Positions 1 through 13,444 of a stretch of DNA of 13,444 nucleotides are shown here, piece by piece (the stretch's first letter is position 1; every line of letters begins with the position of its first letter). This stretch comes from Escherichia coli (GTDB lineage: Bacteria > Pseudomonadota > Gammaproteobacteria > Enterobacterales > Enterobacteriaceae). The notes under the pieces were generated by a model that was not told where the DNA came from, searched no databases, and worked only from the letters and a program-made list of their open reading frames with translations. Location of the stretch: the NCBI RefSeq assembly GCF_003334815.1, contig NZ_QOWO01000057.1, one strand, 5' to 3'. A program made the position numbers and the translations under genes.

Positions 1-22
1 AGCTGATAGAAACAGAAGCCAC
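1..22 (-). CDS. insA: insA of IS1, first 7 codons only (partial, runs off the window)
   Basis: GTG at 22-20 (minus strand) opens GTG GCT TCT GTT TCT ATC AGC = MASVSIS, the InsA N-terminus of canonical IS1. Confidence 0.8.
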
Positions 23-77
23 TGGAGCACCTCAAAAACACCATCATACGCTAAATCAGTAAGTTGGCAGCATCACC
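1..77 (-). mobile_element. IS1 terminus (IRL-proximal 77 nt); the rest of the element lies off the left edge of the window
   Basis: The reverse complement of 1-77 reads GGTGATGCTGCCAACTTACTGATTTAGCGTATGATGGTGTTTTTGAGGTGCTCCAGTGGCTTCTGTTTCTATCAGCT. I recognise this as the left end of canonical IS1, with one mismatch to the IS1A/IS1R sequence as I remember it. The terminal inverted repeat GGTGATGCTGCCAACTTACTGAT occupies 77->55. Confidence 0.93.
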
Positions 78-898
78 ATATAATTCCATTCACCATTTTT
101 TAATTCAAACAGCTCTGGAAGAGATGACGGTTGCAGAGTCATACGTTTGAGTGGTGCATTTTCATCACCCGGGATAACTTTATATCCCATTTTTGCATGG
201 ATCTCCGCGGTACCGGGATAGGCTTCTATACCAATTATTGGGTCATTACCCAACTCAATATTAGCATTAAGTAATGCGGCAAGGGCGAATCCGGAAGAGT
301 TTGCCACCCCTGAGACAGTCATTATCTGATCAATATAGATATCAATCCTTGGCTGCTCATTGGTCCATCTTTTTGCCTGAGAAGTTGGAAGAGTTGAAAT
401 ATATCCTATCGTGGTTCCGGCGTAACCTGGAACATTGCAACCAGGGCCTAATGTTATTTCATGAACTGTATAGTCCTCAACAGGATCGAAAGGGCTCTTC
501 ATAAATAAATTTAGCCGTAAACCTTCTGCTAATTCTGTAGCAGCATGCGCCTTTTTACATATGCCACCATATATTTCGTCTAAAGCTGAGGTGATTTTCA
601 AGTTTCGATAGAGCATACGTCCTGTTGTTGTAATACCATCGGATTCTCTGCATGCTTCTGTCACATAATTAAATGGCCAAGACTCTTTACTAATATCAAG
701 TTTTCTAATTTCGACAACGCTTTTTCCATCGTAATTATGGTTATTGCCACGAGCAAGAGGCAGAAGATAGATATTTTCCGTATCCAGGCGTGCACGTTCA
801 TATTTACGTGTTAACTCACTGTCGACTTTTGGATGATGAAGGAAGTGATTATCTGTAATAATTTGGCTCTGAAGGGTATTGCTTAATGGCATAGACAT
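56..898 (-). CDS. yjiC: YjiC, uncharacterised protein; the extreme C-terminus is replaced by read-through into the IS1 IRL
   Basis: A 280-codon ORF whose translation I recognise as E. coli YjiC. The start ATG is at 898-896, with AAGG about 8 nt upstream. The IS1 junction (77/78) falls inside the codon at 77-79, so the last residues MVMLPTY plus the stop are specified by IS1 sequence. The gene is visibly AT-rich compared with its neighbours. Confidence 0.85.
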   Translation of the reverse strand: MSMPLSNTLQSQIITDNHFLHHPKVDSELTRKYERARLDTENIYLLPLARGNNHNYDGKSVVEIRKLDISKESWPFNYVTEACRESDGITTTGRMLYRNLKITSALDEIYGGICKKAHAATELAEGLRLNLFMKSPFDPVEDYTVHEITLGPGCNVPGYAGTTIGYISTLPTSQAKRWTNEQPRIDIYIDQIMTVSGVANSSGFALAALLNANIELGNDPIIGIEAYPGTAEIHAKMGYKVIPGDENAPLKRMTLQPSSLPELFELKNGEWNYMVMLPTY

Positions 899-1151
899 AA
901 TAGTTACCTTTTATGAGTATTTCACTGATGTTTAGAAAAATAGATAAATTTTTCTGTAGTAAAATGAGAAGTAAACAAATGACATGCATGTTTCTGTTGT
1001 AGTGATATCAACTCTACACGGTGATATTAAAGGGTAGGAAACACTCTAAAGTATCAAAAAACGCTCATTTGAAATTATTTTCATGCAATTTAAAAGCATA
1101 TCTTATTACTAATTGGAATTTGATGTTGCTATATTGATGTCTATATTAATA

Positions 1152-1253
1152 ATGCCTGTGAATGGTATTTTTGATGTATTTGATATGTTATCAATTTATA
1201 TTATTTACAAACTAATTGTTTCAAATAATACATGGCTGATTATGCGGAAATAA
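1152..1253 (+). CDS. ytiC: Small hydrophobic protein, 33 aa (MPVNGIFDVFDMLSIYIIYKLIVSNNTWLIMRK)
   Basis: I translated this by hand: ATG 1152, TAA 1251-1253. Its position (between yjiC and iraD) and its 33-aa length match the small protein YtiC that I recall from E. coli K-12 ribosome-profiling annotations. The symbol is tentative. The ORF is too short for the supplied ORF track. Confidence 0.5.
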   Translation: MPVNGIFDVFDMLSIYIIYKLIVSNNTWLIMRK

Positions 1254-1375
1254 ATAATTTCACACCGGAATTAAGTAGCGGTGGTGACAAGTATTTTCAT
1301 CTACGTAACTATTCGGAATATTCAGAATATACTAGCGGTTTTTTTTTGAGTTTGATGATTTTTATCAAATCATGA
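1232..1375 (+). CDS. ytiD: Small protein, 47 aa (MADYAEINNFTPELSSGGDKYFHLRNYSEYSEYTSGFFLSLMIFIKS)
   Basis: I translated this by hand: ATG 1232, TGA 1373-1375. It overlaps the 3' end of the ytiC-like ORF by 22 nt in another frame. It contains a T9 run (1339-1347) and has a hydrophobic C-terminal tail. Its position fits K-12 ytiD as I recall it, but the symbol is tentative. Confidence 0.45.
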   Translation: MADYAEINNFTPELSSGGDKYFHLRNYSEYSEYTSGFFLSLMIFIKS

Positions 1376-1490
1376 CTTTTTTCCTGAAAAGTCAGTAGAT
1401 ATTCATAGGCAAGTAAGGTTTTATACTTTGCTGACAGGATTCAGGCCTGTCTCAGACTGACATGGATGTAATGAACAAAAGGGAATGGCT

Positions 1491-1574
1491 ATGGAAAATG
1501 AGCATCAATACAGTGGTGCCCGGTGTTCAGGGCAAGCCGCATATGTTGCTAAACGTCAGGAGTGCGCAAAATGA
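1491..1574 (+). CDS. idlP: iraD leader peptide, 27 aa ([27 protein letters not shown])
   Basis: I translated this by hand. ATG 1491 has AGGGA 7 nt upstream. The stop TGA 1572-1574 overlaps the iraD ATG 1571-1573 as ATGA. The iraD Shine-Dalgarno AGGAG (1558-1562) lies inside this ORF. The sequence and length match IdlP as I remember it. An in-frame ATG at 1485 is too close to the SD to be the likely start. Confidence 0.7.
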
Positions 1575-1963
1575 TGCGCCAATCACGTCAGGCTGTTTTA
1601 CCTGAAATTTCAGGCAATAAAACGTCATCGCTGCGTAAATCAATATGTAGCGATCTCCTCACTCTTTTTAATTCTCCTCATTCGGCATTACCGTCATTAC
1701 TTGTTTCAGGCATGCCCGAGTGGCAAGTGCATAACCAGAGCGACAAACATCTCCAGAGCTGGTATTGCCGTCAGCTGCGTTCTGCACTGTTATTTCATGA
1801 GCCACGGATTGCGGCGTTGCAGGTCAATCTGAAAGAAGCGTACAGCCACACGCTGGCGATCAGCCTTGAGATAATGCTGTACCACGACGATGAACCGCTA
1901 ACGTTTGATCTGGTCTGGGATAATGGCGGTTGGCGTAGTGCGACCCTCGAGAATGTCAGCTAA
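1571..1963 (+). CDS. iraD: IraD, anti-adaptor protein that blocks RssB-mediated RpoS degradation (130 aa)
   Basis: The ORF at 1562-1963 translates as ...[23 protein letters not shown]..., which I recognise as IraD (YjiD). I place the start at ATG 1571 (AGGAG 8 nt upstream; gives the 130-aa K-12 length I recall) rather than at the GTG at 1562. Confidence 0.93.
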
Positions 1964-2867
1964 GTACAATCTCCAGCTCGCGCAGTTCACGCCAGAAGCG
2001 TTCGGCAACTGGATTCATGCGGGTATTCATTCGGTATGCATAGGCCTGAATCGGGATCACCAGTTCGTCCCGATTCAGTACAACGAGCTGCCCGCTGCGA
2101 ATTTCTTGTTGGATGGCGTACTCCGGCAGCCAGGCAATCCCACAGCCGTCGAGGGCAACCTGCTTTAAAAGCTCGCTCATCGAAGAGACAAAAAAGGTGC
2201 TGAAACTTAACTCACTGTGGCGCGTCAGGGTGCGATTAATCAATCGCCCCATGTAGGAGTTGCGGCTGTAATTCAGTAACGGAAAGTGTGGCTGCGCGAG
2301 GTTAAAAAGTGCTTCTCCGTGTTCGTCACTGGCGCAGACAGGGAACAATTGAGATTCAAATAAGCGAATGTGGTCAAACGGCGCTTCCAGCAAATCTTCG
2401 TCGTGAAAGGAAAAAATACAGTCACTTTGCCCTTCACGCAGTTTATCGACCGCTTCATCGACATCAATAGCTTCAATTGCCCAGGTAAAGAGCGGCGGCA
2501 TCTGGCTGATAATGGACGGTAACAGCCCGAGGGAAAGAGAGTGTGCAGCGGCTATTTTAATTTTGCGTTGCGCGTAATCGCTGCCACCACGGAGTTCTGC
2601 AAGGTTGCTCTCTAACTGTTGCAACAGATGGCGGATCTGCGAATGGAATATTTTACCTTGTTCCGAGAGTTGCAGCGGCGTCACCTGGCGGTTAAACAAT
2701 TCAACGCCAATCGCCTGTTCCAGCGCACGGATGCGGCGGCTGAATGCCGGTTGCGAGACGTTGCGACTGACTGCTGCCTGGGAAAAATTGCGGCATTTTT
2801 CCAGGGTCAGAAAATCATAAAGCCATTTAGTTTCAATATTATGCAAAACCGCACCACAGTCATCCAT
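1956..2867 (-). CDS. hypT: HypT (YjiE), LysR-type hypochlorite-responsive transcription factor (303 aa)
   Basis: Full-length ORF with an N-terminal LysR helix-turn-helix ([27 protein letters not shown]). I recognise the sequence as YjiE/HypT. Its stop TGA (1958-1956) overlaps the iraD 3' end. Confidence 0.95.
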
Positions 2868-2879
2868 TACGTTTTACTC

Positions 2880-2926
2880 TGTCAGCCGCCCTTGCGGGCA
2901 TTCTACGTCCATTCGGGCGGCTGACA
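2880..2926. repeat. Perfect 12-bp GC-rich inverted repeat (TGTCAGCCGCCC ... GGGCGGCTGACA) with a 23-nt spacer, between the iadA stop and the hypT start
   Basis: The left arm 2880-2891 and right arm 2915-2926 are exact reverse complements (read by eye). No U-run follows on either strand, so it is not a canonical intrinsic terminator. Confidence 0.7.
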
Positions 2927-2931
2927 ACCGT

Positions 2932-4104
2932 TTATGCCGTTTCAAACGTTCCTTTCACGCAGGCTTTGCCGTCTTTGACCATCAGCTTGCCGCGAGCGTA
3001 TACCTGCTCAATGCGTAATTCTGGCGTCATGACCAGTAAGTCTGCGTCATTGCCTGGCAGAATTTCGCCTTTCCCGCTCAGGTTAAGGAAACCGGCTACG
3101 CTACTGGTGAGCGGGCGCAGGGCATCGCTGATACTGAAATCATAATCTTTGACCAGCACCTGCACGGTTTCCAGCAACGTTTCAAAACCGGCAACACCGA
3201 TATGGGTTAAATTCCCTTCGTCATCGAAGAACGGCTGGCTACCGTTGCCGTCGGAGCTGAGGGTGACGCGTGCCAGCGGAATACCCGCCTGAACGGCGCG
3301 GGCAATACCTTCGGCAGGGGCGACTGGTTCGTCAATGCTGCTGGTGATATCGATGGTGCCGCCTTTGCGCGCGAACTCCAGCGCCTGCTCAAACAACGGA
3401 ACGTTGCGGTTAACGTGGGTCGGCAGCAACTTGCTAATCGGCACATCGCAGTTTTCCAGCAGGTCATAGACAGGCTGTAACGCCTTTTTGCTGTCGCCCA
3501 TGTGGAACACGGTGACGCCAGGTTTACCGCCGAGCAAACCGCCAACGCGGGATTCCGCCGCCATATTAGCCAGGTGATAAACGTCCGGTGCGGCAGAACG
3601 GTGATCAGAGATGGCGCATTTCACGCCAATCACGCGATCGATAATCGCCACGTCTTTTTCCACGGAACCCGTAATAGTGCGGGAAGGGACATGATAAGCG
3701 CCGGTCAGCATCCAGGCGCTGATGCCTTCTTCATTGAGCGCACGGGTCTTGGCGAGCAGGGATTCCGGGTGGCGAGAGATAGAGTCGGTGCCCAGCAGAC
3801 CAACCACTGACGTGACGCCTGCTTCCGTCAGACGACTTAACGCCACTTCCGGCGTGCGCGTCGTGGGACCTGCTTCGCCGCCACCGCCAATCAAATGGAC
3901 GTGTTGATCAATAAAACCTGGGCAGAGGATCTGCCCGCTGAGATCGACAACCGTGCAGTCCGGTACAATGTCAGAAGGGATATTACTGGCAACGGCGATA
4001 ATTTTGCCGTTAGCGACGAGGACATCGCAAATTCCCCGATCTTCCGGCGCATACAAATGCGCTCCCTGCAGCAGGGTAAAACCGGCTGCGGTATAATCAA
4101 TCAT
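2932..4104 (-). CDS. iadA: Isoaspartyl dipeptidase IadA (amidohydrolase superfamily, 390 aa)
   Basis: Full-length ORF with the metal-binding HVHLIGGGGE motif typical of the amidohydrolase fold. I recognise the sequence as E. coli IadA. AGGAG lies 5 nt upstream of ATG 4104. Confidence 0.96.
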   Translation of the reverse strand: MIDYTAAGFTLLQGAHLYAPEDRGICDVLVANGKIIAVASNIPSDIVPDCTVVDLSGQILCPGFIDQHVHLIGGGGEAGPTTRTPEVALSRLTEAGVTSVVGLLGTDSISRHPESLLAKTRALNEEGISAWMLTGAYHVPSRTITGSVEKDVAIIDRVIGVKCAISDHRSAAPDVYHLANMAAESRVGGLLGGKPGVTVFHMGDSKKALQPVYDLLENCDVPISKLLPTHVNRNVPLFEQALEFARKGGTIDITSSIDEPVAPAEGIARAVQAGIPLARVTLSSDGNGSQPFFDDEGNLTHIGVAGFETLLETVQVLVKDYDFSISDALRPLTSSVAGFLNLSGKGEILPGNDADLLVMTPELRIEQVYARGKLMVKDGKACVKGTFETA

Positions 4105-4116
4105 GGTAACTCCTTG

Positions 4117-4578
4117 TTAAACAATAAGCTGCATAACCCAGATCGACAGCAATGCGTTAATCACGCAGACCGTAATGATATGCGGGTAATATTTGGCATT
4201 CACTTCGGCTGTCCCCAGGCAGCGACCGACATTTTGCACCGGGTTGCCCATTAAATACATCGCGGGCAGTAAAACGGTGACATCGTGACCGGTTAATGCG
4301 CCAGCGGTTGCCAGACTGGCGGCAACACCGACTGCGCCACCCATACTCATTAATGCGGCTAAAAGGACGGTTGCCGCTTCACCGGGTAATCCCCACAGCG
4401 CCATTACGGGTTCACAGATATGCCCCACCCAGTCGAGCAGGCCGGTAATTTTCAGCGCCTGAATGATGACAAACGCCATCACCACGTTTGGCAGCAGGTT
4501 GGTCGTGGCGATAGTAAAGCCACGGCGCGCACCATCGATAAACATATCCATGACGTTTTTGCGGACCTGAGTTGTCAT
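4117..4578 (-). CDS. yjiG: YjiG, inner-membrane protein (Gate/nucleoside-recognition-domain family, SpmB-like half), 153 aa
   Basis: A hydrophobic full-length ORF that I recognise as YjiG. Its ATG 4578-4576 overlaps the yjiH stop as ATGA. AGGAG lies 7 nt upstream. Only 12 nt separate its stop from the iadA start. Confidence 0.92.
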   Translation of the reverse strand: MTTQVRKNVMDMFIDGARRGFTIATTNLLPNVVMAFVIIQALKITGLLDWVGHICEPVMALWGLPGEAATVLLAALMSMGGAVGVAASLATAGALTGHDVTVLLPAMYLMGNPVQNVGRCLGTAEVNAKYYPHIITVCVINALLSIWVMQLIV

Positions 4579-5258
4579 GCTTGCGCTCCTTGCGTTGGGT
4601 TGCGACGTTCTTCGAAGTTAAGCCAGACGCGCAAAATGTTGGCTCCGACAAATTTAAACACCAGGATGACTGCTAAAGGTACGATTACGGACGTGCCCAG
4701 AAAGGCAAACACCGCGACGCCGGAAGAGAAGTAGTTGGTGATAATGGCGCTACCGCTGGTTTGATATGCGGCGAAAATCACTTTATCGCGTTCGGTAATT
4801 TCACCTTCCTGCGCCAGCTCTTTGGTCATACCTGCGGCGGCATCGGTGTTTTGCAGGTTAGCGATCAGCGCCAGCGAGCAGATCCCTGGAATGCCCAACA
4901 ACGGTTTTAGCACTGGCGTCATTAACTGCTGCGCGGCGCGTAATCCGCCAAGACCATCGGTAATTGAAATAATCCCCAGAGAGAGAATGACTGACGGTGC
5001 CAGCTCCAGCGCAAAGAGAAAGCCATCTTTAGCCCCCGCGCCACCCGCGCCGCGAAACGAGGTGGTGGCTCCGTTCGCACCAGGCAGTTGCCCAAACGAT
5101 CCGTTCAGAACGGAAAAATCAAAAACGCGCCACCAACTGTCTGTCCCGGAAAAAACACCGGAAAAAAAGATTATGGTGAGAAAAAAAGCCAGATACCCTT
5201 TAATGCCCACTTTTTCTGTCGCCAGCTCCCCGGCTACAGCATCCCCTTGTTGTGTCAT
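4575..5258 (-). CDS. yjiH: YjiH, inner-membrane protein (Gate/nucleoside-recognition-domain family, SpmA-like half), 227 aa
   Basis: The ORF spans 4575-5270. I place the start at ATG 5258 (GGGGA 5 nt upstream; gives the 227-aa K-12 length I recall). It is a multi-pass hydrophobic protein that I recognise as YjiH. Confidence 0.9.
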   Translation of the reverse strand: MTQQGDAVAGELATEKVGIKGYLAFFLTIIFFSGVFSGTDSWWRVFDFSVLNGSFGQLPGANGATTSFRGAGGAGAKDGFLFALELAPSVILSLGIISITDGLGGLRAAQQLMTPVLKPLLGIPGICSLALIANLQNTDAAAGMTKELAQEGEITERDKVIFAAYQTSGSAIITNYFSSGVAVFAFLGTSVIVPLAVILVFKFVGANILRVWLNFEERRNPTQGAQA

Positions 5259-5299
5259 AACAATCCCCATTGTTTTTTTGTGTTTGTGTGTTGCTTGAG

Positions 5300-5315
5300 C
5301 CAGGAAAATTCCTGG
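5300..5315. promoter_or_regulatory. Near-perfect palindrome CCAGGAA-AA-TTCCTGG in the yjiH/kptA divergent intergenic region
   Basis: It has 7-bp arms and a 2-bp centre, and sits 42 nt upstream of the yjiH start. It could be a protein operator or a 5'-UTR hairpin of the yjiH mRNA. I know of no binding factor. Confidence 0.25.
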
Positions 5316-5507
5316 AGCTGAAAAACCTTATCAGCCATGTGGGTATGGGGAAAATGCAAGTATGTTTCTGACTATGCGTTTTTTGCATAGCGGTAAAATT
5401 ACGCTGTGTGGAAAAGGTTCTACGCAGGATTGAGTTGCAGAAAATTCATAAACCCAGTGACAATGACATAGTAAATAAAAAACAGATAATCCAGGGACGA
5501 AAACGCG

Positions 5508-6062
5508 ATGGCAAAGTACAACGAAAAAGAGCTGGCGGATACGAGCAAGTTTTTAAGTTTTGTCCTCCGACACAAACCGGAGGCGATTGGTATCGTACTG
5601 GACCGTGAAGGATGGGCGGATATCGATAAGCTCATACTTTGTGCCCAAAAAGCGGGCAAGCGGTTAACCCGTGCATTGCTGGATACCGTGGTTGCCACCA
5701 GCGATAAAAAGCGTTTTAGTTATTCCAGTGATGGTAGGTGCATCCGCGCGGTTCAGGGGCATTCGACTTCGCAGGTCGCTATTTCCTTTGCCGAAAAAAC
5801 ACCGCCACAGTTTCTCTACCACGGTACGGCAAGCCGTTTCCTTGACGAGATAAAAAAACAGGGGCTGATTGCAGGTGAGCGTCACTACGTACATCTCTCT
5901 GCTGATGAAGCAACGGCACGCAAAGTGGGAGCAAGACACGGATCGCCGGTTATTTTAACCGTCAAAGCACAGGAAATGGCGAAACGAGGCCTCCCTTTCT
6001 GGCAAGCGGAAAACGGGGTCTGGCTGACATCAACGGTTGCGGTCGAATTTCTTGAGTGGTAA
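5508..6062 (+). CDS. kptA: KptA, RNA 2'-phosphotransferase (Tpt1 family), 184 aa
   Basis: Full-length ORF that I recognise as E. coli KptA. It contains Tpt1-family conserved blocks ([22 protein letters not shown]). AGGGA lies 10 nt upstream of ATG 5508. Confidence 0.95.
5695..5702 (-). other. Chi site (5'-GCTGGTGG-3' on the minus strand)
   Basis: Exact octamer; the plus strand reads CCACCAGC. It lies inside kptA. Confidence 0.9.
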
Positions 6063-7253
6063 GGGAAACACTCCCCATGAAGTGACCACTTGCAGCTTAA
6101 ATAATTGTACTGTGCTGATAAGCGCAGCAATAAACAACGCCGCCGCGCCGCAGAGAGTGGCGCCGGCAAGCGCCGATGTTCCATTGCCGAGCATACTGGT
6201 CAGCGCCGGGCCGAGGATTTGTCCAATGCCGTAAATGAGCGTCACAAAGCCTAAAAGATTGAGATTTCCCGGTACGCTCAGTTGGCGGGCGATAGTCATC
6301 ACCAGAGATGTCGTGCCCATAAAGGTACCGCCAAAACCAAGACTGCTGATGATAAGCAAGAGAGGCGAGTCGCTGGCGAGAGTAAGCAGCACACAGATAG
6401 CCTGCACCAGCAAATTCGCCGTCAGGCAGGGCAAAGCCCCCCAACGTTTTGCTGCCCATAGCCAGCCAAAGCAACCAGGCACAATTGATAAGCCGACTAA
6501 CGTCCAGAGATGGGCGGTTAACAATGGTGAGCCTGCATCTTTCGCCATGAGCGGCAGGTAAGTCGCGACGATGATATAACCAAATCCCGCCAGGCCGTAC
6601 AGAATAGCCAGTAACCACCAGCTCATTATCTGTTGCTCCGTTTTTGCCAATGGCATTGGTGTGATGGCGTGTTTTTTCGAGGGCATTAAAAGCGTAAGTG
6701 CAATCAGCATCATGCCAGAAAGCGCCCCGGCGCCTTGCCATAACGTTTGCGAGGAGAGGTCAAAATGCAGGCCTGCCAGAACATATTCATTGCCCAGTGC
6801 GATGCCAATGCCAACGCCAGAAAACAAAGCTGCCAGCACAAAAGGATGGCGCGTGTGCTGCATAATCAGCGTCGAACCAAAAATCAGCATACCGGCGCTG
6901 GCGACACCCGCCAGGACGCGAATCAATAACACCAGAATAAATGGCAGCAACCATGCCATTGCGAGGATCAACAACCCGCTCGCCAGGGCAGAAGCCAACA
7001 GAAATGGGCGCAGGCGCGATGGCTGGTGAAATGCGCCAAACGAAAATAGCAGACTGCCAGCCAGATACCCCGCATAGTTGCCGCTGGCAATCCACGAGAG
7101 CTGGCTAAATGAAAACGATCCTTCCGCCATCATGACGGGCAACATAGGCGTATAAAGGAAGCGGCCTAAACCCATACCTAAGGTCAGAACCAGCATCCCG
7201 AAAAGCGCGGTGCTGAAAGAAAAGCGTTCTACGGGATGCGAGGGCGAAGGCAT
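6030..7253 (-). CDS. yjiJ: YjiJ, YbfB/YjiJ-type MFS-like membrane protein, with a 15-residue C-terminal extension (407 aa here)
   Basis: A 12-TM-like hydrophobic ORF that I recognise as YjiJ. AAGG lies 6 nt upstream of ATG 7253. The K-12 protein as I recall it is 392 aa and ends ...FKLQVVTS. Here a TGG codon (6077-6075) follows Ser392, and the frame continues [15 protein letters not shown] to 6030. Confidence 0.9.
6615..6622 (-). other. Chi site (5'-GCTGGTGG-3' on the minus strand)
   Basis: Exact octamer; the plus strand reads CCACCAGC. It lies inside yjiJ. Confidence 0.9.
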
Positions 7254-7320
7254 GTTTAACCTTGTTTGTCATTTTTGTTGTTAACAAGTTAATAACAAAA
7301 AGGTGAAACATGCCAGCCTG

Positions 7321-10428
<3,108 letters not shown>

Positions 10429-10543
10429 GATTTTCCTTCCCCGTACCACGGGAGATAATGAAAAGAGGCCACATTATTACCATTCTTTTAGTGTGGTTTA
10501 TTTGATCTCTCTCGCGGTTAGCCACTTAGTTTTTCATGGATTT

Positions 10544-11824
10544 CTAAAAATTGCTGAGGGGGAATAAGGCCGGGAGCTGCGACAGCAAATACAAAATTAG
10601 CCCAATACAACCGCCGACCAGCGTACCGTTGACACGGATAAACTGCAGATCTTTGCCGATATTTAACTCTATTTGCCGCGACATATCCCGCGCATCCCAG
10701 CTTTTTACCGTATCGCTGATGTGGCGCGTCAGGAATGCGGAAAACTCAGGCGCGACGCGGTGCGCGGCTTGTTCCAGGTGACCATTTAACGACGCCCGCA
10801 AGGCATCATCGGCAATTAACGTTTCGCCAAACCATTGACCCGCCCGCGCGATACGTTCTTTCACACGAGAATCTTCACTGTCGATATCCGCTTTCAGCCA
10901 TTCCCGTAAATCCCCCCACAATTCACTGAGATAGCGGTTAAAAGCTTCATCTTCTTTCAGATAACTTTTTACGGCATCGGCTCGCGCTGCCATTTCCGGA
11001 TCGTTTTTCAACTTGTCGATCAGGGCAAAAGTGGCGCGATCAAACGCATGGCGGATCTGATGTACACGATCGCGGCTGATATCATCAAGCAAAGAATTCA
11101 CCGCGTCAGAAACCAACTCCGCGCTATGTTCGCCCAGCCATTCAGTAGGCAAAATTTTGGCTTTCAGCGGATGCTCGCTCTCCAGCCAGCGAACAATTTG
11201 CTGGGCAATAAACTTGCGCGATTTATCGCGCTGGAGAAGAGCAATCAACTGCGCGATCAGCGTATCCAGCAGCACCTGATGACGATCGTTTTTGGTCATA
11301 CTCTCCAGCATCAACGCACTGGTGCCGGAAAGATCGATCTTATCAATCGCCCGATGGACTGCGCGCTTAAGCAGGCGCTGAATACGCGCATCATCGGTCA
11401 GTTCAAGAAAACCACTCATGATCTGCAACAGATGCTGACCAACGCGGCGGGCGTTTTCTGGCTGACTAAACCAGTTGCCAATCAACAACACCGGTTCGTG
11501 ACGTCGAATCAATGCCACCAGCGATTGGGTATCGAGAAATTTTTCCTGCACGAACTGACCGAGATTTTCGCCAATCCGGTCTTTATTACGCGGGATAATC
11601 GCCGTATGACGAGAAATGATCGGAATCGGCACGCGGCGAAACAGCGCCACCACCGCAAACCAGTCTGCCAGCGCGCCGACCATCGCCGCTTCAGCAATCG
11701 CCTTCACTCCGCTCACCCAAAAATTGGGTGGCAAAAACAGCGTAACGACAAAGGTAGCAGCGGCGATAAGCAGTAAAGAGAGCGCCAACATTTTGGCGCG
11801 TCTGAGTTCAATGAGTTTATTCAT
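10544..11824 (-). CDS. yjiN: YjiN, DUF445-family inner-membrane protein (426 aa)
   Basis: Full-length ORF that I recognise as YjiN. It has N-terminal ([19 protein letters not shown]) and C-terminal ([16 protein letters not shown]) hydrophobic helices flanking a long helical soluble region. Confidence 0.92.
11515..11522 (-). other. Chi site (5'-GCTGGTGG-3' on the minus strand)
   Basis: Exact octamer; the plus strand reads CCACCAGC. It lies inside yjiN. Confidence 0.9.
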
Positions 11825-11864
11825 AATGTTAAGAATAGAGCCTGACGGCAGGATCGCGCAAAAA

Positions 11865-13097
11865 TCACCGCTCCTCCGCCAGCTCGGCAGCCTGATGTTG
11901 GCGCACGCGATTAAGCAATCCCGCCAGGGTGAAAACGACGATAAGGCCCGCCACGACGGCTAACAGATGAAACGGCAAGCGACCGCCGTTAAACCACAGC
12001 CAGCGGCCGATTTCGACCGAGACAGACATCACCATCAGGATCACCATATTCAGCGATGCGGAGACGGTCCCTTTCGGTAAGTTATTGGAAAACAGCGTAA
12101 AGCGGAATAAGGTCGGGATAATCAAACCAATCCCGAAAGCATACAGACTGGTGCCCAGCACCGACCACAGCCAGACGTGCGGTGACAGCAGATTGCCGAT
12201 AATCAACAGCGCGAGGCCAACCAGTTGAATGGGTACGGCACGCCAGATAAAGCGCGGTTCGGTCGGATCTTTAACGAAACGCGCCACGATGGCATTCGCG
12301 ACAATCACCGCGCCGAATACCGGAACCTGTGTCCAGGCGAACTGCGAGGTCGTTAAGCCGCCTGCGTCAATCAGGATCACCGGCGAGACAGCCACCCAGC
12401 TCATCATTGGGATATAGCTTAAAGAGATGGTTGCTGCACCAAAGAGGAACAGCCGATTGCAAAAGACATTACGAAAATCGCGCAAGACGCTTTTGGCGCT
12501 AAATGAAACCGCGCCGCGCTTCACCGTCTCTGGCATCGCCAGCAGTAAGCCAACAAATGAGATAAAACCCATAATCGCAATGATGGCAAAAAGGACTTTC
12601 CAGTGTACAAAGTGCATCAGAGCTGCGCCGGAAAGCGGGCCGATAATCGGCGCAATCAGTACGATGGAGGTGATAATCGCCATCAACCTGATCCCTTTTG
12701 TCTGGCCGAACGCCTCCTGCACCGTGACATAACCAACGGTGGCAATAAAACAGATACTGGTGCCCTGAATTGCACGCGCGATAAGAAACTGTGTCATAGA
12801 CGTTGTGAACATTGTCGCAGCGCAGGCAAGGGTAAATATTAGCGCCCCGGTAATCAGCACCGGCCTGCGGCCAATCCTGTCGGAAAGCGGCCCCAGCAGC
12901 CACTGTAACGCCATACCGCCCGCGAGATAGAGACTGACGGCTGCCGGGGCCAGACTGACATCGGCATTAAAATCACGGACCACATTAATGATCCCCGGCT
13001 GAATCAGGTCCGTCGACAGGTACGCGGCAAAATCATACAAAATCAACGCCATCGGGAAAAACAGCGTGGCGGCATGGCGGGCAAAAAAACGTGGCAT
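11865..13097 (-). CDS. mdtM: MdtM, MFS (DHA1) multidrug / cation:proton antiporter, 410 aa
   Basis: I recognise the ORF as MdtM (YjiO). It carries MFS motif A ([13 protein letters not shown]) and antiporter motif C ([12 protein letters not shown]). I place the start at ATG 13097 ([14 protein letters not shown]...; GGAG about 10 nt upstream; gives the 410-aa K-12 length I recall), not at the ORF-track start 13196. Confidence 0.95.
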
Positions 13098-13367
13098 AAC
13101 AAACAACTCCTTGTCCGGAGAACCCCAACGGGCAAAACGAAATTCAATACCGTCGGTAATGACGAAAGGCAGGCGAGAAGGGCAACGAGACTGCAAATGT
13201 ACTGAATTTCATGTAATCAACCACACTGCCTGTGAACACACCGACAGAGAAATACCTTCTGACTCCAGGTCAGAATGTATAACGATTACAAATAGTCATC
13301 AGCACATTACACCTCTTTAATTGATGGCTTGCATAGAAAATATACACCTTAAGTGTAATTAAAATTT

Positions 13368-13444
13368 GGTAATGCTGCCAACTTACTGATTTAGTGTATG
13401 ATGGTGATTTTAAGGTGCTTGCGTGGCTTCCATTTCCATCAGAT
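13368..13444 (+). mobile_element. Terminus of a divergent IS1 isoform (IRL-proximal 77 nt); the rest of the element lies off the right edge of the window
   Basis: It reads GGTAATGCTGCCAACTTACTGATTTAGTGTATGATGGTGATTTTAAGGTGCTTGCGTGGCTTCCATTTCCATCAGAT, an IS1 IRL-type terminus. A hand alignment gives 66/77 identity, ungapped, to the reverse complement of 1-77. Confidence 0.9.
13423..13444 (+). CDS. insA: insA of the divergent IS1 copy, first 7 codons only (partial)
   Basis: GTG 13423 opens GTG GCT TCC ATT TCC ATC AGA = MASISIR, the InsA N-terminus I associate with the IS1F-type isoform. Confidence 0.75.

Follow-up and report, generated by a model that had tools for sequence, protein, structure and literature searches.

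The 13,444-nucleotide stretch of Escherichia coli DNA analyzed here (the window) is an ordinary part of the E. coli chromosome, running from yjiC to mdtM, that ends in two independently acquired IS1 elements, and it is not a mobile unit. We hold with high confidence that it is a repeat-terminated native contig in which the left IS1 is a simple insertion and the right IS1 is the scar of a deletion of the immigration-control region, that the two IS1 events are unrelated, and that no composite transposon is involved.

The genome set searched consisted of 5426 complete genomes, all of them E. coli. Of these, 4936 cover the window to 80% or more, and in the closest closed genome, the bovine E. coli CE0021a, the whole window is matched with 5 SNPs over 13.4 kb. 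Genomes that carry neither IS1 copy have an identical gene order in the block, with uxuR adjoining yjiC. In CE0021a the gene outside the left IS1 is uxuR, and those outside the right IS1 are brnT, brnA and yjiA. The gene content given in the initial annotation (mdtM, yjiLM, kptA, iraD, hypT and others) agrees with the RefSeq annotation of CE0021a. A scan of the window against Rfam returned no family at gathering score. The features referred to below are as follows.

Positions 1-77, minus strand: first 77 nt of the left IS1 (IS1A-type), with the IRL at about 55-77; the full copy is seen in CE0021a.
Positions 20-22, leftward: GTG start of the left insA, of which 7 codons and one base (22 nt) lie in the window.
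Positions 56-898, minus strand: the yjiC (DUF2686) allele, 280 aa, with its last codons and stop inside IS1.
Positions 78-86, no strand: ATATAATTC, inner copy of the 9-bp target-site duplication of the left IS1; the outer copy is at CE0021a L001 5301-5309.
Positions 78-13367, no strand: native chromosomal block, as given by window coverage and gene order in IS1-free genomes, with the genes yjiC-ytiD-idlP-iraD-hypT-iadA-yjiG-yjiH-kptA-yjiJ-yjiK-ytiA-yjiL-yjiM-yjiN-mdtM.
Positions 11865-13097, minus strand: mdtM coding sequence with its native 5' end, carried over to window coordinates from the CE0021a RefSeq annotation.
Positions 13098-13367, no strand: retained native DNA (270 nt) upstream of mdtM, from alignment with a K-12-like strain.
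Positions 13359-13367, no strand: TTAAAATTT, inner flank of the right IS1 (beside the IRL), with no duplicate beyond the element.
Positions 13368-13444, plus strand: first 77 nt of the right IS1 (IS1F-type), IRL followed by insA with a GTG start at 13423.

Both window ends are left ends of IS1 (the IRL and seven insA codons) in inverted orientation, as initially annotated. The reverse complement of positions 1-77 reads GGTGATGCTGCCAACTTACTGATTTAGCGT...GTGGCTTCTGTTTCTATCAGCT, that is, the IS1 IRL and then a GTG-initiated insA, and positions 13368-13444 read GGTAATGCTGCC...GTGGCTTCCATTTCCATCAGAT, with an InsA start of V/MASISIR. The two stubs are identical at 66 of 77 positions without a gap, and their assignment to different isoforms, IS1A-type on the left (V/MASVSIS) and IS1F-type on the right (V/MASISIR), is upheld. 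The inner flanks are also those originally reported, ATATAATTC at 78-86 and TTAAAATTT at 13359-13367. An inverted-repeat search of the window found the IS1 pair as one 79-nt repeat (arms 3-81 and 13364-13442, 86% complementary), which is far beyond chance, the second-longest inverted repeat being 26 nt.

In closed genomes a full 768-bp element is present at each end, which confirms that two inverted IS1 isoforms bracket the block. Both CE0021a copies have an IRL of GGT(G/A)ATGCTGCCAACTTACTGAT, an IRR of ...AAGTTGGAGTCATTACC, the A6C motif at IS1 position 307 and a 232-aa fused InsAB', and RefSeq annotates a programmed frameshift for their insA/insB'. The left copy (L001 5310-6077, 768 bp) is annotated as 'IS1-like element IS1A family transposase, programmed frameshift', and its equivalent in other genomes has the Pfam domains Zn_ribbon_InsA, HTH_Tnp_IS1 and DDE_Tnp_IS1. 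The right copy (L001 19368-20135, 768 bp) has an intact 232-aa InsAB' with the A6C frameshift motif, and is identical at 766 of 768 positions to a fec-linked copy assigned to the IS1F family in RefSeq. The two full copies match each other at 698 of 768 positions (70 mismatches, 9% divergent), with a longest run of perfect identity of 51 bp. This divergence and the differing numbers of genomes that have each junction (246 of 5426 for the left IS1, 448 of 5426 for the mdtM side of the right IS1) bear out the independent origin proposed for the two copies. They occur together in at least 20 genomes, a count drawn from the best 25 matches to the whole window and a lower bound, since the junctions lie 13.3 kb apart and their matches were not joined in the search.

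The left IS1 is located between yjiC and its native neighbor uxuR, and ATATAATTC is present on both of its sides. The empty site in U12A has this 9-mer once only (...TTATTTACCAATATAATTCCATTCACC). The left copy is a plain insertion of an IS1A-type element at the 3' end of yjiC, which produced a 9-bp duplication of its own and altered the last residues of YjiC. The altered C-terminus reads ...GEWNYMVMLPTY, compared with the native ...GEWNYIGK that is given by the empty-site sequence.

Inverted-arm IS1 composite transposons, such as Tn1681, are an established class, and two full inverted IS1 copies with intact InsAB' frames do bracket the block in closed genomes. The initial annotation had raised the reading that the inverted pair and the 13.3-kb block form such a Tn1681-like transposon, inserted or insertable as a unit. 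This reading is not borne out and has almost no likelihood left. The left IS1 has a duplication of its own with uxuR outside it, the outer 9-mers (ATATAATTC and CGACAGCGA) differ, so that the outer ends have no common 8-9-bp duplication, the block is at its native site (from uxuR to the yjiA side), where most genomes have it free of IS1, and the junctions occur independently of each other (246 and 448 genomes). No plasmid record contains a unit bounded by the IS1 pair; the 'plasmid' records with the block are mostly 0.37-4.9 Mb long, and the ends of the lone 22-kb record do not fall at the IS1 pair. Taken together, the duplications, the native context and the search of plasmid records led to rejection of the composite transposon, which is already refuted as the origin of the arrangement. 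There is no evidence that the block between the IS1 copies ever moved or flipped as a unit.

The caveat that the window may be a short-read contig ending in repeats holds, as draft contigs elsewhere stop within the same left IS1, at depths of 58 and 102 nt. Among 481 database blocks, 276 have a length of 10-20 kb for the longest contig with the IS1-altered YjiC. That both ends are 77 nt long fits the overlap expected from an assembler k-mer, and we infer that the window is a repeat-terminated contig of the native yjiC-mdtM stretch, each end of which runs one k-mer (77 nt) into a multicopy IS1; the linkage past these ends is inferred from near-identical closed genomes. It is quite improbable that the contig is an assembly-graph artefact with one or both ends joining IS1 in other contexts in the source genome. 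The two stubs are exactly 77 nt long, a common de Bruijn k value, and the window is uninformative beyond them; against this, the unique DNA is genuine as far as each IS1 boundary, and both junctions occur in many closed genomes, one of them with 5 SNPs over 13.4 kb. The 'Shigella-like IS1 density' of the initial annotation did not find support within this E. coli-only collection: the nearest genome, that of a bovine E. coli, has few IS1 matches, about 11 of its places matching the window and most of these being necessarily IS1 ends.

A further proposal was that the two inverted IS1 copies can recombine homologously and so flip the block. The copies are 768-bp inverted repeats with 91% identity and uninterrupted matches as long as 51 bp, and the minimal RecA substrate is shorter than this longest match. 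However, the junction predicted for the flipped block, searched as a 1968-nt chimeric query (uxuR flank, IS1 and mdtM upstream DNA), had no match of at least 80% coverage among the 5426 complete genomes, of which 20 or more have both copies. Mismatch repair is expected to suppress recombination between mismatched repeats, here with 70 mismatches and no identity run above 51 bp. We therefore regard flipping of the block as very unlikely. An inversion of smaller extent does occur in strain 720632, where the right IS1F is duplicated in inverted orientation and yjiK-mdtM is inverted. The 9-bp target GCAATCCAC is present there as GCAATCCAC and GTGGATTGC, and the two 767-nt IS1 copies are identical; this IS1F-driven inversion arose by intramolecular replicative transposition.

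At the other end of the block, a K-12-like strain is homologous in its mdtM-rpnD intergenic region exactly as far as 13367/13368, and homology to IS-free genomes ends exactly at both ends of the right IS1. The comparison with IS-free genomes that the initial annotation had proposed identifies the DNA displaced beside mdtM as the immigration-control region, uxuR still being the native neighbor beside yjiC. The right IS1 exactly replaces this region between mdtM and brnTA, which in U12A measures about 11 kb and has rpnD, yjiR, yjiS, symE, hsdR, hsdS, hsdM and a restriction endonuclease between the two breakpoints. In CE0021a the outer flank of the right IS1 is CGACAGCGA and the inner one is TTAAAATTT, so that an 8-9-bp duplication is absent. 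Such absence is the expected mark of a later deletion or recombination and is no argument against the identity of the element as IS1. The initial annotation had overlooked that the right IS1 has no target duplication and marks the deletion of the immigration-control region.

The right IS1 is most likely an IS1-associated deletion scar. The IS1F copy would be the lone IS1 remaining where rpnD, yjiR, yjiS, symE, hsdRSM and the restriction endonuclease were removed. Its IRL now borders on a point 270 nt upstream of mdtM, and the IRR borders on the brnTA-yjiA side. The loss most likely occurred by an IS1-promoted adjacent deletion, i.e. by intramolecular replicative transposition, recombination between IS1F copies being less likely. 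The end product agrees with an adjacent deletion in having a single IS copy, no target duplication and missing DNA that starts exactly at the IS end. An ancestor with the IS1, its duplication and the immigration-control region still present gave 0 relevant matches at either breakpoint among the 5426 genomes. The mdtM-side query (IRR, TTAAAATTT and K-12-type DNA) had 0 matches, and the brnT-side query (U12A-type DNA, CGACAGCGA and IRL) had one, in strain Ec-91, which is another IS1 insertion about 200 nt off; these queries were built on K-12-type or U12A-type neighboring DNA, and other variants could escape them. Because the ancestral form was not found, the mechanism is deduced from the end product. 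The anatomy, the junctions, the presence or absence of a duplication and the population frequencies are direct observations.

The brnT-side junction of the right IS1 is found in 1113 of 5426 genomes (~20%). In 664 genomes the same IS1F-brnT junction has a piece of the distant yghW-yghX locus at its IRL side, for which one simple adjacent deletion is not sufficient as an explanation. The right IS1 could instead come from homologous recombination, either between two direct IS1F copies flanking the immigration-control region or between a resident IS1F and incoming IS1F-brnT DNA, and we consider this possible, with adjacent deletion preferred. Recombination would give an identical end product, one IS1 with non-matching flanks. 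It would also easily account for the IS1F-brnT junction in two IRL-side contexts (448 + 664 = 1112 of the 1113 genomes) if the junction spreads by recombination, and high rates of homologous exchange are known for the immigration-control region (PMC4498929). On the other hand, 0 of 5426 genomes have IS1 with a duplication at either breakpoint beside immigration-control DNA of the K-12 or U12A type, and intramolecular transposition is directly documented for the right IS1F copy in strain 720632.

There is some chance, though a rather small one, that a single IS1F copy anchored beside brnTA is a recurrent remodelling point of the immigration-control region. The IS1F-brnT junction has two configurations: in the one seen in the window the deletion of the region reaches a point 270 nt upstream of mdtM, and in the other a yghW-yghX fragment is fused in frame to mdtM (yghW'-'mdtM, 664 genomes). 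If IS1F drove these events independently, as opposed to recombination having spread a single old event, one element would explain both restriction-less lineages and rewired mdtM expression species-wide. The loss of the region, the yghW'-'mdtM fusion and the 720632 inversion could be of interest for work on defence-island turnover or MdtM expression. The IS1F-associated pattern is still standard IS1 behavior.

For the lineage of the window, the consequences are that the hsd/restriction island beside mdtM is absent and that YjiC is slightly altered. Both alleles are already known, being present and annotated in hundreds of RefSeq genomes, and the finding as a whole is ordinary IS1 biology that matters little. 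The lesson for assembly is that a 13.4-kb contig with mirror-image IS1 stubs results from repeat collapse and is not to be taken for a mobile unit.

Among known systems, the left copy resembles simple insertions of the IS1A/IS1R type in its length of 768 bp, terminal inverted repeats (GGTGATGCTGCCAACTTACTGAT / GGTAATGACTCCAACTTATTGAT), A6C -1 frameshift between insA and insB', 232-aa InsAB' and 9-bp AT-rich target duplication. Nothing of substance differs; the left copy has C for T at IRL position 28, a variant common to all 160-nt left-junction matches listed. The arrangement shares with Tn1681/Tn9-type composites a DNA segment between two IS1 copies, inverted as in Tn1681, but has no shared outer duplication, one arm with a duplication of its own, arms that are 9% divergent isoforms, and native cargo at its native locus.

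The right copy has the same InsA sequence (MASISIRCPSCSATEG...) as the fec-linked IS1F of the E. coli K-12 type, whereas it lies at another locus, between mdtM and brnT, and lacks a target duplication. With IS1 adjacent deletions and inversions it shares one old and one new junction, the absence of a duplication and a loss that starts from the IS end; 720632 shows the sister outcome, an IS1-promoted inversion that leaves another IS copy in inverted orientation and a 9-bp duplication, likewise inverted. It differs from them in that the ancestral insertion was not found and in the yghW-yghX junction type, which a single event does not explain. The literature searched describes the general framework of the immigration-control region and the IS changes in Crooks, and the exact junctions of the window were not found there. 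In restriction-minus E. coli such as Crooks, hsdRMS-type genes between mdtM/yjiPRS and the yjiAXY framework were lost with the involvement of IS elements (PMC3032704, PMC4498929). The right end of the window is alike in that restriction genes are gone from between mdtM and the yjiA side and an IS is involved, but, as compared by description, the loss here extends to the framework genes rpnD (yjiP), yjiR and yjiS, and one IS1F stands in place of everything.

The two IS1 elements bounding the window are independent of each other, as the initial annotation had proposed. Read as its reverse complement, window 1-77 is the left end of IS1 (IRL GGTGATGCTGCCAACTTACTGAT..., followed by a GTG-started insA at IS1 position 56, (M)ASVSIS), and window 13368-13444 is the equivalent part of another isoform (GGTAATGCTGCC..., (M)ASISIR). 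The stubs are identical at 66/77 positions and form a single 79-nt inverted repeat with 86% complementarity in a repeat search of the window, the second-longest inverted repeat within it being 26 nt. Since both left terminal repeats (IRLs) point toward the native chromosomal block between the stubs (yjiC to mdtM, window 78-13367), the elements are in the inverted orientation originally described. Megablast with the entire window as query, against 5426 complete E. coli genomes, produced full-length matches, the closest being strain CE0021a (bovine, New Zealand; locus L001), which differs from the window at 5 positions and in which each stub extends into a complete 768-bp IS1.

Complete IS1 elements in CE0021a
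L001 5310-6077: left IS1, annotated as IS1A family transposase
L001 19368-20135: right IS1, annotated as IS1 family transposase

Both copies encode an intact 232-aa InsAB', the frameshift-fused transposase, across the A6C frameshift motif. They are identical to each other at 698/768 positions, with 51 bp as the longest perfect run. The right copy is identical at 766/768 positions to a fec-linked copy labelled IS1F by RefSeq, so the earlier assignment of a canonical left and an IS1F-like right element is correct. The IS1F copy at the mdtM-brnT locus, intact in CE0021a, carries a pseudogene annotation (frameshifted, internal stop) in several genomes and is decaying in some lineages.

Pseudogene-annotated IS1F copies at the mdtM-brnT locus of other genomes
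L003 2789-3485: IS1F pseudogene
L008 5369-6065: IS1F pseudogene
L009 5368-6065: IS1F pseudogene (strain MB06232)

Of each 768-bp element the window includes precisely 77 nt. Other, independent drafts break elsewhere in the same left IS1, at 58 nt (Logan contig) and 102 nt (GenBank draft), and in 276 of the 481 database blocks with an IS1-altered YjiC the longest contig carrying it falls in the 10-20 kb class, as expected if both IS1 copies delimit a 13.4-kb contig. These break depths and contig sizes support the earlier caution about the contig ends: the window probably stops in a repeat on both sides, at an assembly k of 77.

The left IS1 arose by simple insertion. A 9-bp sequence directly outside it (ATATAATTC, L001 5301-5309) recurs on its inner side (window 78-86), and in strain U12A, which is without this element, the site reads ...TTATTTACCAATATAATTCCATTCACC and the 9-mer is present in a single copy. 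The insertion lies in the final codons of yjiC, with the usual neighbour uxuR on its outer side, and replaces the C-terminal ...GEWNYIGK* of YjiC with ...GEWNYMVMLPTY* in a 280-aa ORF at 56-898. The exact junction is found in 246/5426 complete genomes, including H10407, SE15 and ML35. Window position 50 (IS1 IRL position 28) is C in the left IS1 and T in the IS1F-type copies examined (TAGCGTATG vs TAGTGTATG). The 40 matches listed for the 160-nt left junction, SE15, H10407 and ML35 among them, are all 100% identical to the window and hence carry the same C variant, a pattern that points to one old insertion passed on by descent or recombination and away from a hotspot.

Simple insertion does not account for the right IS1. 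In CE0021a it is flanked by TTAAAATTT on the IRL side (window 13359-13367) and by CGACAGCGA on the side of the right terminal repeat (IRR), and comparison of the two revealed no target duplication. Homology of the mdtM upstream DNA to a K-12-like strain stops precisely at the IRL, homology on the brnT side to the IS-free strains U12A and A33 starts precisely at the IRR, and between both breakpoints U12A holds ~11 kb (from annotated coordinates) with rpnD, yjiR, yjiS, symE, hsdR, hsdS, hsdM and a restriction endonuclease. This interval is the immigration-control region plus part of its framework, as defined in PMC4498929. One IS1F thus occupies the place of the whole region in the window lineage, next to 270 nt of retained native mdtM upstream DNA. 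Separately, fimB of U12A is broken by the ISL3-family element ISEc53, which carries a ClbS/DfsB-family gene (L006 3090-5582).

The mdtM-side junction of the right IS1 occurs in 448/5426 genomes and the brnT-side junction in 1113/5426. On the IRL side, 1112 of these 1113 genomes (448 + 664) fall into two classes, the window type and a second type (664/5426), in which the IRL adjoins a copy of ~260 nt of the distant yghW-yghX locus, made up of 96 nt from the 3' end of yghX, the intergenic region and ~17 codons from the start of yghW. This copy is fused in frame with mdtM through a CATGCCG(C/A)C microhomology and takes the place of mdtM's own promoter and first ~9 codons; the chimera predicted, YghW(1-~17)-MdtM, would be under the control of the yghW promoter, with no native mdtM promoter left. 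Neither type is derivable from the other by simple deletion.

Examples of the yghW-mdtM junction, outside the window
L009 5071-5312: strain MB06232
L010: strain EC-1639

Such an anatomy of the right IS1 would be produced by an adjacent deletion that IS1 promoted, or by two IS1 copies recombining with each other. An ancestor with IS1 and its duplication at either breakpoint and the immigration-control region retained was found in 0/5426 genomes, the sole match in this search being a separate IS1 insertion ~200 nt off in strain Ec-91. Intramolecular replicative transposition leads to inversion or to adjacent deletion. In strain 720632 (L007 12760-20563), an inversion of yjiK-mdtM is bounded by a pair of inverted 767-nt IS1F copies with 100% identity; the brnT junction is retained by one copy and the TTAAAATTT junction by the other, and one of them splits yjiJ. 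At the new junctions the 9-bp target in yjiJ (window 7087-7095) reads GCAATCCAC and, complemented, GTGGATTGC, an inverted duplication that marks intramolecular replicative transposition. As the annotation gives both copies as frameshifted pseudogenes, transposase presumably acted in trans. Because this pathway is visible for the very same IS1F, we favour transpositional deletion at the right IS1, with somewhat better than even confidence, over IS1-IS1 recombination, which is possible and less probable. Another IS1F of strain 720632, linked to fec (L007 about 33665-34432), is also without target duplication (GGGGATTTC vs CTGGCGGCT) and adjoins a fimH that is truncated, pointing to a further deletion associated with IS1F, between fim and fec.

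Three further readings in the initial annotation are not supported. A composite transposon mobilising the block is rejected by the duplication belonging to one arm, the differing 9-mers outside the IS1 pair, the cargo of native DNA at its native locus and the unequal population frequencies of the two junctions. The block is found at no less than 80% coverage in 4936/5426 genomes and adjoins uxuR in every genome examined. Among 72,556 plasmid records, 10 contain it at a coverage of at least 80%; nine of these are 0.37-4.9 Mb, and in the tenth, RCS63_p (22.3 kb), the block boundaries lie in hypT and past brnA, not at the IS1 pair. This record (L011, NZ_LT985269.1), labelled a plasmid, carries chromosomal iadA...mdtM and brnTA with an mdtM-brnT gap sized for IS1F, flanked by ISEcp1-blaCTX-M-14 and strAB-sul2; rather than a true plasmid, it probably represents an ISEcp1 insertion in the chromosome or a mis-scaffold. 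Inversion of the segment by IS1-IS1 recombination was searched for with a query joining 600 nt from the uxuR flank, IS1 and 600 nt of reversed mdtM upstream DNA; the predicted junction was present at 80% coverage or more in 0/5426 genomes, and the best matches end at 70%, corresponding to the normal left junction. As to a Shigella-like genome, the collection searched comprised E. coli, and in its closest genome the window finds only 11 places.

The arrangement of the window is ordinary IS1 biology, and hundreds of RefSeq genomes already contain its alleles, with annotation. An IS-related loss of the immigration-control region has already been recorded in strain Crooks (PMC3032704).
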